Below are positions 3,821 to 64,000 of a stretch of 64,000 nucleotides of DNA, piece by piece. Under the pieces are notes generated by a model, which was given only the letters and a program-made list of their open reading frames with translations, was not told where the DNA came from and did not search any database. The position numbers and the translations under genes were made by a program. The first letter of the stretch is position 1, and each line of letters starts with the position of its first letter. The stretch spans positions 35,961 to 99,960 of the forward strand of contig DYGE01000002.1 of NCBI GenBank assembly GCA_020724845.1. The letters run 5' to 3'. Origin of the DNA: Candidatus Paceibacter sp. (GTDB taxonomy: Bacteria > Patescibacteriota > Minisyncoccia > UBA6257 > 02-FULL-45-10c).

Positions 3821-4950
3821 AAATTTATTACATTGCTAATGCTAGAATGCCGACCGAAAAGGCCCACGGCATTCAGCTGGCAAAAATGTGCGAAGCTTTC
3901 GTGAAACAGGGTGTTGATTTGGAATTGATCCTGCCGCGAAAAATAAATCTGGAAAAAGACTCAATTGAAAGTTTCTACGAACTGCGATCGCCCTTAAAAG
4001 TGAAGAAGCTGCCGGTCCTGCATTTCGGAACTTCTTACTGGGCGGATTTTACCTTAAGCGCTTTAACTTTTTCGATTTCTTATTTTATCTATATGATTTT
4101 GGAGAAGCTAAAGGGGAGAAAGGGGGTTATCTATACGATAGATCTGGATTATTTTTCATTTTCTTTGATTCCACTGCTTGGTATGCCGTACTTTATGGAA
4201 ATTCACGGAGAGAAGAAAAATACTCTCGCTCATCGGCTGATGTTCCGTTCCGTTCGGGGCATTATTACCATCAACCGTTATATTAAGCGGCAGCTCATGG
4301 AAACATTTAGTATTCCTTCTGAAAAGATTATCGTTCACCCAAATGGGATTGACCTTGATTTGTTTTCCGGCGCTATTTCCCGCGATGAAGCCAGATTAAA
4401 ACTTGGCCTGAAAAAGGACGTTGCCATCGCGCTTTATACCGGCCAATTTTACGACTGGAAAGGGCTGGAAATCCTTGTTTCCCTTGCCAGCCGCCTTGAT
4501 GGCATTTATCTTTATGTGGTGGGAGGAACTCCGGAGGAATTCAAAAAGCTAACCGGCATCAACGAGATTCCTTCCAATATGGTTATAGCCGGCAGGGCGG
4601 AGTTTAAGGACATCCCCCTTTGGCTGGCCGCGAGCGATGTATTGGCGGTAATCGGAACCAAAAAAAACAACTATTCTTACCTGTATACCTCTCCAATGAA
4701 GCTTTTTGAGTATCTGGCGGCGAAGCGCCCGATTGTCGCCAGCGAAACCCCGTCTAATAAAGAGATTGTGTCCGAAAAGGAGGTATTATTTTATGAACCG
4801 GATAATGCCGATGATTTCGCGGAGAAGGTCCGGTTTGCGGCGAGGAATCGGGACGCAATGAGTTCCTATATAGATGCCGGCTTGCGAAAGGCCAAGGAAT
4901 TTTCATGGGAAAACAGGGCCAGGCGCATTATTGAATTTATCAATTTATGA
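3796..4950 (+). CDS. Glycosyltransferase family 1
   Basis: 384-aa GT-B-sized ORF; the C-terminal half has a GT1-like core (..LFEYLAAKRPIVASETPSNKEIV..). Confidence 0.6.
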   Translation: MDKKPEKLKIYYIANARMPTEKAHGIQLAKMCEAFVKQGVDLELILPRKINLEKDSIESFYELRSPLKVKKLPVLHFGTSYWADFTLSALTFSISYFIYMILEKLKGRKGVIYTIDLDYFSFSLIPLLGMPYFMEIHGEKKNTLAHRLMFRSVRGIITINRYIKRQLMETFSIPSEKIIVHPNGIDLDLFSGAISRDEARLKLGLKKDVAIALYTGQFYDWKGLEILVSLASRLDGIYLYVVGGTPEEFKKLTGINEIPSNMVIAGRAEFKDIPLWLAASDVLAVIGTKKNNYSYLYTSPMKLFEYLAAKRPIVASETPSNKEIVSEKEVLFYEPDNADDFAEKVRFAARNRDAMSSYIDAGLRKAKEFSWENRARRIIEFINL

Positions 4951-6647: not shown

Positions 6648-7726
6648 GTTTTCTAACTCACAATTTAAGACACGATAACGGAGCGGGAGTATTTTCCAGG
6701 CGCCTCATTGCCGGCGTAAAAAAAAGCCTTAATTGCGAAGTAGTGGCGCTGACCACTATCCCTTCCGGAGATGATTTTGAGAAACCGATTATTTATCCCG
6801 GCAAGCGGCGTCTTTTAATGTCGCTCTTTGCCATCAGGCGGGTGTTGAAGGATTGCGATGTTATCCATGCTTTAGACGGCTATCCCTATGGCGTAGTAGC
6901 GGTTCTGGCATCGCTCGGTCTCAAGAAAAAAATCATAATTACTGCTGTAGGAACCGGCTCAATCAACCCCTTATACCGACCCTTCTATTCCCGGCTTCTT
7001 AAATACAGTTATCGGAAGGCGAACAGGGTAACGGCAATCAGCCGGTTCACGAAAAATGAAATTTTAAAAAGAGTCCCGAATCTTGATATTGAAGTTATTA
7101 ATCACGGGGTAGATTTTAAGAAATACCAAGCTGTCTCCGGCTCTGAAAAATTTTCCAAATATCAGCCATACATTCTAAGCGTGGGCTCTTTGCGTTGGCG
7201 CAAGGGATACCATTTGAGCATCCCTGCTTTTGCCAAAGTAAGCGAGGCCTTTCCGGATTTGAAATATCTTATCGTCGGGAAAAGATATGCCAAAGATTAT
7301 TACGATCGGCTAAATGGTCTCATCGGGGAATATAACTTGAAAGACAAGGTGATACTACTTGATTCGGTTGATAAGTTTGAAGACTTAGTTGCGGCTTACA
7401 GGGGCGCGGAATTGTTCTGTTTGCTCTCCCAAAATATCCGGCACGACGTTGAGGGGTTTGGACTGGTCTTCTTAGAGGCGGCGGCGGCCGGCTTGCCGGT
7501 CGTAGGCAGCAAGGGCGGCGGCGTGGAAGACGCGGTTTTGGAAGGCGAGAACGGCCTTTTAGTCCCGGAAACCAGCCAGGAAGATTTCGCGGGCGCGATA
7601 ATCAAAATTTTAAGGGACAGGGCCATGATGGAGCGAATGTCAGCGGCGTCTCTGCGATTAGCCAATTCCTTTGATTGGAGCGGGCAGATATCCAAATATA
7701 TTGATTTATATCGTGAATTAAGTTAA
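6638..7726 (+). CDS. Glycosyltransferase family 1
   Basis: [38 protein letters not shown] is the classic GT4 E-x7-E region. Confidence 0.8.
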
Positions 7727-8783: not shown

Positions 8784-8826
8784 AAATTTTTTGTAAACGA
8801 CGATAGGGTATATTTGTACTTAAGAG

Positions 8827-8966
8827 CGGGTAGATGTCCTCTGTGCGGCAACTACGGAGCGCCAGATTGCTTGGTTGTCCATCGGACAAATTTGGCGTGA
8901 GGCGTAGGCGGCGTCAATCGCAGGAATTGGCGAACGCCGGTGCCGGTAAGAGGATATCTGCCCGCT
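8827..8966 (+). repeat. Structured palindrome-bounded repeat, copy B (forward core)
   Basis: Outer arms gcgggtagatgtcctct / agaggatatctgcccgc pair with G-U wobbles. The core CTCTGTGCGGCAACT.ACGGA...GGTGCCGGTAAGAG is shared with the copies at 10201, 12697, 32378 and 59814. Confidence 0.85.
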
Positions 8967-8985
8967 TCTAACTTGGAGAAATACT

Positions 8986-10200: not shown

Positions 10201-10446
10201 GAAATCAGAAAGAGTATTTTCTTTAGACTCGGGCTGCGCGGTGGGGACAAAGTGTCATAACCAGAAAGTATCCTCTTACCGGCACCAGCGTTCGCTGATT
10301 CCTGCGATCAGCGCCGCTTACGTCTCATCCTGATTTTCGCAAGCGAACCGAGCAAATCAGGATTCCGTCAGTTGCCGCACAGAGGATACTTTCTGGTTAT
10401 GTTTATCAGGTGGAGGCGGTCTAAAGAAAATACTCTTTCTGATTTC
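10201..10446. repeat. Composite repeat, copy A: perfect 28-bp outer TIR, perfect 18-bp inner IR, and the conserved core in reverse orientation
   Basis: 10201-10228 gaaatcagaaagagtattttctttagac is the exact reverse complement of 10419-10446. The inner IR is aaccagaaagtatcctct (10259-10276) versus agaggatactttctggtt (10381-10398). The core between them is the reverse complement of the copy D/E core. Confidence 0.9.
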
Positions 10447-12696: not shown

Positions 12697-12906
12697 CACA
12701 GGAAAGCACCCTCTGTGCGGCAACTGACGGAATCCTGATTAGCTTGGATTCCGTAAGGAATAATCAGGATGAGTCGTAAGCGGAATTATCACCCCGTGTT
12801 GGAAGGTAGGCCGCTATGCTATAGCATAGCGGTCGTCGGAAACCTGAAGGTGTTCGAGATGGGGGTCGGGGTGAGAATCTGGGACGGTAAGAGGGTGCTT
12901 TCCTGT
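12697..12906 (+). repeat. Structured repeat, copy C: perfect 18-bp bounding IR, extra internal hairpin insertion
   Basis: cacaggaaagcaccctct (12697-12714) is the exact reverse complement of agagggtgctttcctgtg (12889-12906). The conserved 5' core is CTCTGTGCGGCAACTGACGGAATCCTGATT. The 3' part is replaced or expanded by a segment containing the perfect hairpin ccgctatgctatagcatagcgg. Confidence 0.85.
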
Positions 12907-12917
12907 GCAGCTAATAT

Positions 12918-20799: not shown

Positions 20800-21867
20800 A
20801 TGGGAAATTTCAAAAATAAGGTCAAAATAGGCGATAGATATGTGGGCGAGGGTGAGCCGACCTATTTTATTGCAGAAATAGGGAATAATCATAATGGTGA
20901 TTACTATTTAGCGAAGAGAACTATTGAGGAGGCTGTTAAGGCTGGCGCGGACGCGGTGAAATTTCAGAAACGTTTTATTGACCAGACTTTTGCCAAGGAG
21001 TTGAGGGAGAAGCCTCAGACAAAGGACCAGGTTTTGGGGAAAACTTATGGAGAATACAGGCAGGCTCTGGAGTTGTCTCTAGATGAATTCAAAAAACTGA
21101 AAAAAGTTGCTCAAGATTTAGGTACTACTTTTTTTGCCACGCCTTTTGACAAAAAGAGCGTGGATTTCCTGGAAGAAGTAGGGGTGGACGTATACAAGAT
21201 TGCATCTTTTGACGCTACTAATCTTCCATTATTAGAATATGTCGCAAAGAAGGGGAAGCCCATGATTCTTTCAACTGGTATGACCTCTCTAGAGGAATTG
21301 GATGAGGCGGTTAAAACGATTGCGCCGCTAAACAACCAACTCGTCATCCTGCATTGCGTTTCTGTGTATCCTACTACAGACGAGAGATTAAATCTCGCAA
21401 CTATACCATTTTTAAGAGAAAGGTATAAACCGATTCCTATTGGGTATTCCGGACATGAAAGGGATTACGCGCCTACCCTTGCGGCTATAGCATTAGGCGC
21501 TAAGTGCGTTGAAAGGCATATCACTCTTGATAAATCTTTGCCTGGGCCGGATCATGCTACAGTCAGCATAGACCATTTAGAATTTAAGCAAATGGTAGAC
21601 GAGGCAAGGAGGATAGAGACTGCGCTTGGTAAGCCAGGAAAACATCTTTTTGAAGAAGAGATGAAGACTAGAGAGAAGCATAGCAAGAGCATAGTTTCCA
21701 AAGTTAAAATTTCTGCCGGTACGCCTATTACTGCCGATATGGTGATCTGCAAAAGCCCTGGTTATGGCCTTAAGCCAAGGAGGTTGCCGGAAGTTATCGG
21801 AAAAAAATTGAAGAAAGATGTTGAGGAGGATACTGTCTTGACGGAGGACCACATTTTATGGGCCTAA
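20800..21867 (+). CDS. neuB: N-acetylneuraminate (nonulosonate) synthase, NeuB family with C-terminal SAF domain
   Basis: YFIAEIGNNHNGDYYLAKRTIEEAVKAGADAVKFQ is the NeuB signature. ..ILHCVSVYPT.. and an antifreeze-like/SAF C-terminus are present. Confidence 0.9.
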   Translation: MGNFKNKVKIGDRYVGEGEPTYFIAEIGNNHNGDYYLAKRTIEEAVKAGADAVKFQKRFIDQTFAKELREKPQTKDQVLGKTYGEYRQALELSLDEFKKLKKVAQDLGTTFFATPFDKKSVDFLEEVGVDVYKIASFDATNLPLLEYVAKKGKPMILSTGMTSLEELDEAVKTIAPLNNQLVILHCVSVYPTTDERLNLATIPFLRERYKPIPIGYSGHERDYAPTLAAIALGAKCVERHITLDKSLPGPDHATVSIDHLEFKQMVDEARRIETALGKPGKHLFEEEMKTREKHSKSIVSKVKISAGTPITADMVICKSPGYGLKPRRLPEVIGKKLKKDVEEDTVLTEDHILWA

Positions 21868-32347: not shown

Positions 32348-32377
32348 CTTCCCATTCTCTTTATTTAGTATTCTTTT

Positions 32378-32523
32378 GAATACCAAAGCACCCTCTGTGC
32401 GGCAACTGACGGAATCCTGATTTGCTTGGTTCGCTTGCGAAAATCAGGATGAGACGTAAGCGGCGCTGATCGCAGGAATCAGCGAACGCTGGTGCCGGTA
32501 AGAGGGTGCTTTGGTGTTTATTC
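32378..32523 (+). repeat. Structured repeat, copy D (forward core)
   Basis: gaataccaaagcaccctct ... agagggtgctttggtgtttattc bounding IR. The core is identical to copy E and is the reverse complement of copy A's core. Confidence 0.9.
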
Positions 32524-35575: not shown

Positions 35576-36719
35576 TTCTCAAGAGATTTGGAAGAAAATC
35601 AGTTCGCCGGTCAGCGAAGGCGTTTTTATTATTGCCGAAATTGGAAAGAATTTTATCCAGACCCGGGATGAGCGGCCGGTTGAGGAATACTTGGAGAACG
35701 CCAAGAAATTGGTTGATGAGGCCGCGAAAGCGGGCGCGGACGCGGTTAAGTTTCAAACTCACAATGTTGAGGATGAACAGCTCAATATCAACGTCACCTC
35801 TCCGCACTTTAAGGGCAGCGACCGCTATAATTGGGTGGCTAGAAACACCGGGGCTACTCCAGTGGAAGGCTTCTGGAAGCCCCTGAAAGAGCATTGCGAA
35901 AAACGAGGGATTGTTTTCTTTTCCACGCCGATGAGCCGGGGATCGGCAAAAATTTTAAACGAACAAATTGGCGTTAGTCTTTGGAAAATCGGATCCGGAG
36001 ATATTTTAGATTTTGTGATGCTGGATTATCTTAGGAATACCGGCAAGCCGATTATTCTTTCTTCCGGCATGAGCACTCTGGAAGAGGTGGAGAAAACGGT
36101 AAAATTCCTGCGGGAGAAAAACAATCAGATTGTTCTTCTTCATTGTGTTTCAAAATATCCCTGCCCGCCTGAAGATTTGCATCTGCGCACCATTGATTTT
36201 TATAAAGAAAAATTTGACATGCCGATTGGTTTTTCAGACCATTCGATCGGCGTTGATTCGGCTTTGGTGGCGGTGGCAATGGGCGCCACGGTGATTGAAA
36301 AGCATTTCTCTCTTTCCCGTGACCTATGGGGTTCTGACCACAAAGTTTCGCTGACTCCCGAAGAGCTGGCCGATCTGGTGGCGGGCGTCCGGGAATTGGA
36401 AAATAATCCGCGAAAAAGGCAAGAATTGTTGAATAGCGATTTCGCGAAAAGAGGCATGGGCCAAAAAGAGAAGGTGCTTCAGGAGGGGGAGGCGGCTTTT
36501 CGTCCGCTGTTCAGGAAATCCCTGATGGCCGGCCAAGACATTTCTGCCGGGACGGTTCTTGCGGAGGAAATGATATATGCCATGCGTCCCCAGCAATACG
36601 CCGGCGGGTTGCCGTCGGAAAATTACGAATCCGTTCTTGGGAAAAAAACTAAGCAAGATTTAAAAAAATACGACCCGATTACTGAACTAACGCTTAGGAG
36701 AACAGAATACGAACTCTGA
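35562..36719 (+). CDS. neuB: Second NeuB-family nonulosonate synthase with SAF domain
   Basis: FIIAEIGKNFIQTRDERPVEEYLENAKKLVDEAAKAGADAVKFQTH, ..LLHCVSKYPCP.. and a SAF-like C-terminus; 385 aa. A paralog of 20800..21867. Confidence 0.85.
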   Translation: MAQDNSQEIWKKISSPVSEGVFIIAEIGKNFIQTRDERPVEEYLENAKKLVDEAAKAGADAVKFQTHNVEDEQLNINVTSPHFKGSDRYNWVARNTGATPVEGFWKPLKEHCEKRGIVFFSTPMSRGSAKILNEQIGVSLWKIGSGDILDFVMLDYLRNTGKPIILSSGMSTLEEVEKTVKFLREKNNQIVLLHCVSKYPCPPEDLHLRTIDFYKEKFDMPIGFSDHSIGVDSALVAVAMGATVIEKHFSLSRDLWGSDHKVSLTPEELADLVAGVRELENNPRKRQELLNSDFAKRGMGQKEKVLQEGEAAFRPLFRKSLMAGQDISAGTVLAEEMIYAMRPQQYAGGLPSENYESVLGKKTKQDLKKYDPITELTLRRTEYEL

Positions 36720-44989: not shown

Positions 44990-45035
44990 CCTATCCCCAC
45001 TTATTCCCGCGTACGCGGGAATAAGTGGGGATAGG
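44990..45035. repeat. 46-bp perfect palindrome (hairpin) downstream of trxB, member of a 2-copy palindrome family
   Basis: cctatccccacttattcccgcgtacgcgggaataagtggggatagg is exactly self-complementary. Its core is related to the palindrome at 45632. Confidence 0.85.
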
Positions 45036-45048
45036 AAAGGTCAATTAT

Positions 45049-45609
45049 ATGCGGCAAAAAATTGGAACAATTCAAAAGAAAATTTTACTGCTTTTACTTT
45101 TGATTCCGGCAACCGGCTTAGCTTATTCGCCTCGTCAGCGAGCAAAGATATTCCGAAAATTTGGAGAAGAATGGGATAAGATCAACGAGACCGCGCTTAG
45201 CCGAGCGATTAAAGGTTTATATGAAAACAGGATGATAGATTTTCAAGAACATAAAAGTGGAAAGATTAGGATTACTCTACTTAACGATGGGAAAAAGAAG
45301 GCGTTAGAATATGATTTGGAAAATTTAGCGTTGAAAAAACCTAAGCGCTGGGACGGAAAGTGGAGAATGATATTATTTGATATTCCTAATACCAAGAGTA
45401 AGGCGAGAGAAGCGATCCGCTATCATTTGAAGAGATTGGGTTTCTATCGATATCAGAAGAGCATATTCGTGCACCCTTACCCATGCAGGGACGAACTTGA
45501 TTTTGTGATTGAATTATACGGAATAAGGCTGCATGTGCGTTATATAGTCGCCGAGGAAATAGACAACGATATTCATCTTAGGAAAGTATTCAGAGCTTTA
45601 ATAGCTTAA
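45049..45609 (+). CDS. PaaX-family transcriptional regulator, short form
   Basis: N-terminal wHTH-like region and the PaaX-diagnostic ..RWDGKWRMILFDIP.. (compare E. coli PaaX AWDGKWLLLL). The ORF-track start at 45025 lies inside the palindrome, so the ATG at 45049 is preferred. Confidence 0.55.
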   Translation: MRQKIGTIQKKILLLLLLIPATGLAYSPRQRAKIFRKFGEEWDKINETALSRAIKGLYENRMIDFQEHKSGKIRITLLNDGKKKALEYDLENLALKKPKRWDGKWRMILFDIPNTKSKAREAIRYHLKRLGFYRYQKSIFVHPYPCRDELDFVIELYGIRLHVRYIVAEEIDNDIHLRKVFRALIA

Positions 45610-45631: not shown

Positions 45632-45681
45632 AAACATCCCTACCTATTCCTGCGTACGCAGGAATAGGTAGGGATGTTTTA
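45632..45681 (+). terminator. 50-bp perfect palindrome ending in a T-run; likely intrinsic terminator of the PaaX-like gene and second member of the palindrome family
   Basis: aaaacatccctacctattcctgcgtacgcaggaataggtagggatgtttt. It shares the core tattcc(c/t)gcgtacgc(g/a)ggaata with 44990..45035, with a compensatory c:g to t:a change. Confidence 0.6.
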
Positions 45682-59799: not shown

Positions 59800-59813
59800 G
59801 ATTTTGGCGTTAT

Positions 59814-60003
59814 AACCAGAAAGTATCCTCTGTGCGGCAACTGACGGAATCCTGATTTGCTTGGTTCGCTTGCGAAAATCAGGATGAGACGTAAGCGGCG
59901 CTGATCGCAGGAATCAGCGAACGCTGGTGCCGGTAAGAGGATACTTTCTGGTTATGTTTATCAGGTGGAGGCGGTCTGAAGAGATAGTATTCAGGGTATT
60001 TCT
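59814..60003 (+). repeat. Structured repeat, copy E (forward core, left outer arm missing)
   Basis: The inner IR aaccagaaagtatcctct / agaggatactttctggtt is the same as in copy A, but the core is in the opposite orientation. The right flank atgtttatcaggtggaggcggtct(g/a)aag is shared with copy A. Confidence 0.9.
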
Positions 60004-63950: not shown

Positions 63951-63964
63951 GAATTTAGCAGTAA

Positions 63965-64000
63965 AACAGCTCTATACTATTTTTGATACTCGGGCTGCGC
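63965..64000 (+). repeat. Start of a further repeat copy (left outer arm), truncated by the window end
   Basis: cagctctatactatttttgatactcgggctgcgc aligns with copy A's left arm cagaaagagtattttctttagactcgggctgcgc. Confidence 0.6.

Follow-up and report, generated by a model that had tools for sequence, protein, structure and literature searches.

A dispersed non-coding repeat with a conserved three-way-junction fold in Patescibacteria genomes

The window analyzed here is a 64,000-nucleotide stretch of a Candidatus Paceibacter sp. contig (DYGE01000002.1, assembly GCA_020724845.1) that is dominated by a glycan gene cluster. By searching for repeats, reading the sequence directly and running a covariance model with filters off, we located in it five full copies (A to E) of one non-coding element and the start of a sixth (F). 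The unit is approximately 140 nt long, or approximately 250 nt when an outer "shell" is included. Copy A (8820 to 8971, plus strand, 141.8 bits with the covariance model) lies in the sense orientation between the genes for a GDP-mannose dehydratase and a DegT aminotransferase. The core and closing stem (P1) of copy B are on the minus strand at 10256 to 10402 (144.3 bits), antisense to both neighboring genes. They are enclosed by a shell at 10201 to 10446, also on the minus strand, forming a 246-nt palindrome with a 28-bp outer stem and C-rich blocks, 5′ CCGCCUCCAC and 3′ CCCCACCGCGCAGCCCGAG, whose predicted fold reaches −120.5 kcal/mol (z = −11.4). Copy C (12697 to 12907, plus strand) is a variant scoring only 42.7 bits, in which P1 and P2 are intact, P1b is weakened and P3 is replaced by a branched insert of approximately 110 nt. 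This insert (12780 to 12885) is itself structured, with a perfect palindrome GCCGCTATGCTATAGCATAGCGGT and a CACCCCG/CGGGGTG stem. Copy D occupies 32377 to 32520 on the plus strand (141.8 bits). Copy E, core plus P1, lies on the plus strand between the RpiB and histidine-phosphatase genes at 59811 to 59956 (145.4 bits), adjoined at 59957 to 60003 by a shell remnant that consists of a 5′ shell block on the minus strand. Only the first 38 nt of copy F, its outer stem and 3′ block, fall inside the window (63963 to 64000, minus strand), and the full copy was recovered at about 4087 to 4345, minus strand, of L172, a JGI contig of the same organism.

Two 21-nt blocks of the element occur four times each in the window, against 0.00 occurrences expected from 100 shuffles, and the GC content of the element is 0.53 to 0.60 compared to approximately 0.44 for the window. 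A search of the window for solo stems or decayed copies, with filters off, turned up nothing except two perfect palindromes, unrelated to the element, near 44990 and 45632. A preliminary description, made from the letters of the window, had reported a multi-copy element of raised GC content at these places; both points hold, and every helix variant that it quoted is present in the window copies. Some of its assignments needed correction. The CGCCAGAUU/AAUUUGGCG variant of the second helix exists, but in the copy at 8827 and not in the second copy. The blocks described as invariant deviate in three copies: B has GCUCGG in place of GCUUGG, A carries GAGGCGUAGGCGG, and in C the branched insert has taken the place of the third helix, so that the CGCAGGAAU and GAACGC blocks are missing.

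In the fold of the element, a long closing stem of variable sequence leads through a 3×3 internal loop to a conserved stem of 5 bp and then to a three-way junction, whose loops are nearly invariant. In copy D, which consists of the P1 closing stem and the three-way-junction core (−75.2 kcal/mol, z = −7.7), the 5′ arm of P1 (32377 to 32396) pairs with 32501 to 32520 over 20 bp including G-U pairs; across copies P1 measures 14 to 23 bp and its sequence is free. The internal loop and P1b follow at 32397 to 32404, with GUG opposite GUA (32498 to 32500) and CGGCA paired to UGCCG (32493 to 32497). Throughout the family this GUG stands opposite G/U/A-Y-A and leads through P1b, CGGCA/UGCCG, into the three-way junction. 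The P2 domain of copy D (32407 to 32458) contains P2a, U(G)ACG/CGUA, a GA/GAGA loop, a 9-bp P2b, the invariant bulge (U)GCUUGG at 32423 to 32429 and the variable hairpin P2c at 32430 to 32441. The corresponding family arm reads U-ACG/CGUA, loop GA/GAGR, a variable P2b of 9 to 10 bp, the invariant bulge G-C-U-U-G-G and P2c, which lies outside the model and takes at least nine different sequences across copies, all of them fully complementary. The P3 domain (32459 to 32490) comprises P3a, AGCG/CGCU in copy D, a G/AA internal loop, a variable 7-bp P3b and an invariant loop, which is CGCAGGA at 32471 to 32477 of copy D and CGC(A/U)GGA in the family.

The helices are strongly supported by covariation, as the preliminary description had proposed. 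Over 18 distinct sequences, 98.2% of the cells pair, a value somewhat inflated since the alignment was fitted to the covariance model, and at 35 of the 46 base pairs both sides change. Of 500 shuffles, not one attained any of these measures, and sliding the 3′ partner by one to three columns lowered pairing to only 31 to 41%. The invariant blocks make the alignment of the copies unambiguous, and the same helices emerged from an independent MAFFT/RNAalifold run. Covariation is seen at 15 of the 16 modelled pairs in P1, at 9 of 9 in P2b and at 10 of 12 in the P3 domain, and P1b shows one U-A replacement, in L183. Although the paralogues have diverged, 18 of 20 copies are structurally intact.

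Several further features of the core were considered and rejected. Pseudoknots between the invariant bulge GCUUGG and either the P3 loop or the shell block CCCGAG were discarded because the bulge variants (GCUCGG, GCUAGG, GUUUGG and GAUUGG) are uncompensated. The P2 internal loop contains tandem G-A pairs but is not a standard k-turn, as the extra bases are on the wrong strand. A short open reading frame through P3 is not coding because it is open in A and L016 but stopped in D. The sequence GCGUAGGCGG presumably also occurs in helix 20 of 16S rRNA, a resemblance probably due to chance.

The structure is specific to one strand. The modelled orientation contains 32 G-U wobble pairs and 5 A-C mismatches, each of the latter corresponding to a G-U pair on the opposite strand, and this same strand folds better in 18 of 18 copies, by a mean of 10.6 kcal/mol. 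On the basis of the G-U excess and the better folding, a single strand of defined polarity is constrained, in the form of RNA or single-stranded DNA. A folding molecule is naturally read as RNA, and single-stranded DNA is compatible as well. Six of the P2c hairpins use a C-GAA-G loop; GCGAAGC is an unusually stable DNA mini-hairpin. Templated correction of quasi-palindromes could keep long stems perfect without selection, but would not account for the G-U excess.

Searches outside the window added 14 copies, which come from Patescibacteria MAGs and from metagenomes of groundwater and sediment. Of 27 loci picked up by a pattern scan of metagenome contigs, 11 were true homologues representing 10 distinct copies (L026 duplicates L023), the remaining loci being GC-rich chance matches. 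A scan of a genome collection with the 21-nt block gave five matches, all without CGGTAAGAGG, and the covariance model, which was built from 14 copies, confirmed one of them (L001, 122.5 bits), a Patescibacteria MAG from Hainich well H52. Further copies in L175 and L183 were reached by walking from conserved neighboring proteins. No copy was found in viral-contig collections, where two scans were re-scored with the covariance model, and blastn gave no match in plasmids and phages. Comparison with Rfam 15, a check that the preliminary description had called for, gave no gathering-level match for the window or L177. With the element itself, a cutoff of E ≤ 10 returned chance snoRNA and UPD-PK fragments only, and eight further loci yielded nothing but a tRNA. 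The element is in this respect consistent with a candidate novel family. The literature search found no paper with the sequence blocks of the element and nothing relevant by topic. The element is a previously undescribed non-coding repeat family. As for its hosts, the transketolase C-terminal protein of the window is 86 to 88% identical to Candidatus Harrisonbacteria proteins from MAGs, and the CysRS encoded at L016 is closest to Patescibacteria/Paceibacterota proteins.

The genes beside the copies are unrelated to one another and include housekeeping genes. Outside the window they encode Fpg, saccharopine dehydrogenase, KsgA, CysRS/CorA, HrcA/GrpE, a Band-7 protein, a LysM protein, a PDZ protease, GroEL, GT2, S16 and, together with a tRNA, a XerC-like integrase. 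Linkage to a tRNA was seen in a single case among the loci examined, L024 (1536 to 2753), where the element adjoins a tRNA-Leu gene (1749 to 1831) and a gene for a XerC-like tyrosine recombinase (1857 to 2753). Approximately 8 of 19 copies (B, F, L001, L012, L016/L183a, L023, L032 and L175) are antisense to both neighbors and six to nine are sense, so that orientation relative to the neighbors is overall close to 50:50. The element often fills the whole spacer, 1 to 3 nt from a stop codon. At L016, a P1 arm abuts the CorA stop codon and the element ends 23 nt from the CysRS start, and at L023 the element begins 1 nt past the hrcA stop.

Corresponding spacers in related genomes are found both filled and empty. 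The spacer between the RpiB and histidine-phosphatase genes measures 294 nt with copy E in the window and 66 nt when empty in L175. The spacer between the transketolase C-terminal gene and the next gene measures 374 nt with copy F in the window and L172, and 75 to 76 nt when empty in L175 and L176. Between CorA and CysRS, the spacer holds a copy in L016, L183 and L184 (167 nt) and is empty in L185 and L186 (32 nt). The single copy of L175 lies between the histidine-phosphatase and RPE genes, which overlap in the window. Six copies occur in approximately 84 kb of the genome of the window (the window plus 10 kb on each side); 21-kb stretches of three relatives contained 1, 0 and 0. These observations support an element that is gained and lost and behaves as a dispersed repeat. 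Since the compared relatives share only approximately 73 to 88% protein identity and are thus not close, an empty spacer could result from deletion rather than insertion, and the two are indistinguishable at these distances.

The window contains no transposase, reverse transcriptase or recombinase, and a target-site duplication differing by locus was found at none of 17 copies. One sub-family (L020, L024, L030, L032 and L183 8759 to 8899) has a direct repeat G(C/T)GAGC at both ends, which may belong to the element or represent a site-specific target duplication; its identity at five unrelated loci means that it is not a random one. In L177 (JGI Ga0613674_000577), from a related genome, the spacer between the RpiB and histidine-phosphatase genes holds, at 7065 to 7275, a different long-hairpin element of approximately 210 nt with outer repeats ctaaagatccctaatctttct and agaaagattgggtctctaaag. 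Its minus strand folds better (−95 versus −81 kcal/mol), and it has no Rfam match. The clade may carry several families of hairpin insertions.

The outer shell is a module separate from the core. It surrounds P1 in B, F (as read in L172), L009 and L031. The 5′ block is (C/U)CGCCUCCAC and the 3′ block is CCCACCGC(G)CAGCCCGA, and the outer stem is perfect over 24 to 28 bp and differs between copies. Compared to B, F, L009 and L031, the core of copy E is flipped relative to the shell, as the adjoining 5′ shell block is on the minus strand and the core on the plus strand. The arms of P1 in B, E and F are the same 21 bp.

Copies of the core are mosaics of one another. D and E have identical 105-nt cores and several compensated differences in P1. 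F and B have P1 and shell in common but different P2b, P2c and P3 helices. At locus B, the JGI assembly (L181 2785 to 2921, corresponding to window 10260 to 10396) differs by a single G-U change in P2b and by its P3, where a different complementary helix, AAUUGAUU/AAUCAAUU, is found; all else is identical. This difference is due either to gene conversion between paralogues or to an assembly chimera through the repeat. L181 also contains an N run at 4621 to 4630, inside the region of an RmlD-like gene. The mosaics are most simply explained if paralogues exchange whole hairpins, breaking within the invariant loops. The repeat also affects assembly, and contigs of two independent assemblies end inside copy E. 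The window corresponds to two JGI contigs of the same organism, Ga0246236_1000204 and Ga0246236_1000045, meeting near 59864/59880, and short-read assemblies could not join them across copy E.

Taken together, the data on balance favor a new family of dispersed, probably mobile non-coding repeats under structural constraint in Patescibacteria, in Paceibacteria or Candidatus Harrisonbacteria-like genomes, and we hold this reading with modest confidence. We are likewise inclined to regard its single-stranded form as the entity under selection. Insertion would proceed via a single-stranded intermediate, RNA or DNA, of the element-sense strand, and the invariant loops may be what an enzyme encoded at another place in the genome recognizes. 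Whole hairpins would then be swapped among copies by gene conversion. Once inserted, the element would be co-transcribed with the host operon in either orientation, placing between cistrons a perfect stem of at least 20 bp that is a likely RNase III substrate. Against a mobile repeat stand the lack of transposase, reverse transcriptase and recombinase genes in the window, the lack of locus-specific target-site duplications and the alternative of deletion at the empty spacers. In addition, the intactness of 18 of 20 copies is more typical of selection in place than of decaying insertions, and the terminators and TATAAA-like boxes found upstream of some copies would suit independent RNA genes.

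The main rival, favored by the intactness of the copies and the upstream terminators, is a multi-copy gene family for a small trans-acting structured RNA, such as an RNP scaffold or a new catalytic RNA, with each copy under its own promoter. We consider it unlikely, while taking it seriously. In that case the helices would have a structural role only, and a protein or ligand would be bound by the invariant loops. Such an RNA would account for the strand-specific structure kept in all copies, including antisense ones, for the near-complete intactness of the copies and for loops that are invariant across diverged genomes. Intrinsic terminators lie directly 5′ of L009, L029 and L032, TATAAA-like boxes are found upstream of P1 in several copies, 23 to 27 nt from the core, and one promoter-like site lies directly upstream of B on its own strand. 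However, promoter-like sites as a whole are at chance frequency (9 found versus 6.6 expected in shuffled sequence), and P1 is followed by no consistent U-tract, a U-run being present in only 2 of approximately 19 copies (L001 and L175). L016, L023, L175 and B start 18 to 29 nt from the start codon of a neighbor and end 1 to 3 nt from a stop codon, which leaves no room for a promoter or terminator, and spacer-filling copies in general leave little room for either. Close relatives also differ in copy number, between 0 and 6, and none of the copies is in a syntenic position.

A related proposal can be made only tentatively, that the three-way junction defines a new Patescibacteria-specific class of functional RNA. 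It might be a many-copy catalytic or protein-binding RNA, or the recognition core of a non-autonomous element that moves by way of an RNA intermediate; to our knowledge, no retro-mobile, SINE-like element of such a kind is known in bacteria.

The preliminary description had also allowed for a hairpin-forming MITE- or REP-like DNA element. A dispersed element of this general sort is close to the mobile repeat that we favor, but a classical MITE, whose conserved terminal inverted repeats are bound by a DDE transposase that duplicates the target site on insertion, is improbable. The multiple intergenic copies, their presence in both orientations, the presence and absence between genomes and the inverted-repeat ends formed by P1 all fit a MITE, as would the G(C/T)GAGC direct repeat of one sub-family were it not identical at its five loci. 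The pattern of conservation does not fit: conservation is highest in the interior and lowest at the ends, where 15 of the 16 modelled P1 pairs differ between copies in both partners. Moreover, the internal helices covary and tolerate G-U on one strand only, which a double-stranded DNA substrate would not explain.

Inversion of the core by a recombinase acting at the P1 inverted repeats, as in an inverton, could explain the flipped core of copy E and its identical 21-bp arms. It is nevertheless very improbable, since the orientation of E and B is the same in every available assembly, giving no hint of active switching, no invertase gene is nearby, P1 varies between copies unlike the recognition repeats of a shared invertase, and internal covariation is unexpected for a promoter cassette. 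Equally hard to credit is the leading idea of the preliminary description, a cis-acting leader of glycan operons, whether riboswitch, attenuator or processive antiterminator of the EAR or ops type, to which four of the five full window copies, co-oriented with and upstream of glycan genes, had pointed; it is contradicted by the mixed orientation (B and F are antisense in the same genome as these copies) and by the unrelated housekeeping genes that flank the homologues, and no EAR, JUMPstart or riboswitch model matches. The element senses nothing for the glycan genes, which are simply the content of the window.

Among known systems, the element looks most like ERIC, REPIN and Correia repeats in lifestyle and like an orphan structured RNA or small ribozyme in architecture. 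ERIC (IRU) elements of Enterobacteriaceae are imperfect palindromes of approximately 130 nt that occupy intergenic positions in transcribed operons and have no known transposase. Similarly, the present element is non-coding, occurs in either orientation, varies in copy number and orthologous presence, and keeps its hairpins through compensated changes. In contrast to the one long hairpin of ERIC, it is branched, with a three-way junction, invariant loops and, in some copies, a nested shell, and it has no sequence similarity to ERIC and resides in Patescibacteria. REP sequences and REPINs, whose units of 20 to 40 nt have conserved stems, are mobilized by RAYT (HUH Y1) transposases. They share with the element the dispersed intergenic palindromes, the strand specificity and the compensated stems, and REP is recognized as a folded single strand. 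REP palindromes are preceded by an invariant GTAG; in the element, most copies have GUAG before a GC-rich hairpin (P3), replaced by GUAA in the copies of the window genome (B to F) and in L012. The element differs from REP in its branched unit of 140 to 250 nt, and no RAYT gene was seen.

Correia (NEMIS) MITEs of Neisseria, which have conserved 26-bp terminal repeats and a TA duplication, are of similar size and intergenic, and their co-transcription with neighboring genes yields a long stem on which RNase III acts; in the present element it is the interior that is conserved and the ends that vary. Integron attC sites carry R″ RYYYAAC and R′ GTTRRRY core sites, with conserved outer boxes and a variable center. 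The conservation of structure on one folded strand, an unpaired central spacer in the stem and a position directly past stop codons are features in common with attC, but the element has the reverse arrangement of conserved interior and variable ends, and neither a co-oriented cassette array nor intI. The attC core sites are absent from the element sequences read, the window contains no integrase gene, and orientations are mixed. Like twister, hammerhead and hatchet ribozymes and other orphan RNAs, the element measures 100 to 150 nt, combines variable stems with invariant junction and loop nucleotides, and is multi-copy with no consistent gene association. It differs from the known ribozyme classes in matching no Rfam model of theirs even at E ≤ 10, and catalysis by the element is a candidate activity only.

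Patescibacteria are ultra-small bacteria, here of groundwater, with tiny and streamlined genomes that are believed to contain few repeats. Structured elements of 140 to 250 nt at a density of up to one per 10 to 15 kb are unexpected in such genomes for this reason. The elements break contigs and may recombine with each other, which matters for genome evolution and assembly, and they place long double-stranded stems between cistrons, which matters for operon expression. From the perspective of RNA biology, the fold is strongly supported by covariation and belongs to no curated family, and its invariant loops should be expected to bind something. The covariance model and sequence blocks allow the element to be masked or annotated and its partner enzyme to be sought.

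Other repeats in the window are distinct from the element. Two related perfect palindromes (44990 to 45035 and 45632 to 45681) flank a PaaX_M gene (Cas2-like domain) at 45025 to 45609. They have stems of 20 to 23 bp with a central CGTACG in the pattern ...TATTCCYGCGTACGCRGGAATA..., and runs of A and T flank the second, as in a bidirectional terminator. Diverged direct repeats were also present at 1562 to 1632 and 2648 to 2718 (73% identical) and at 20911 to 20966 and 35700 to 35755 (75% identical), the first pair lying inside a gene for a 749-residue double GT4 glycosyltransferase.
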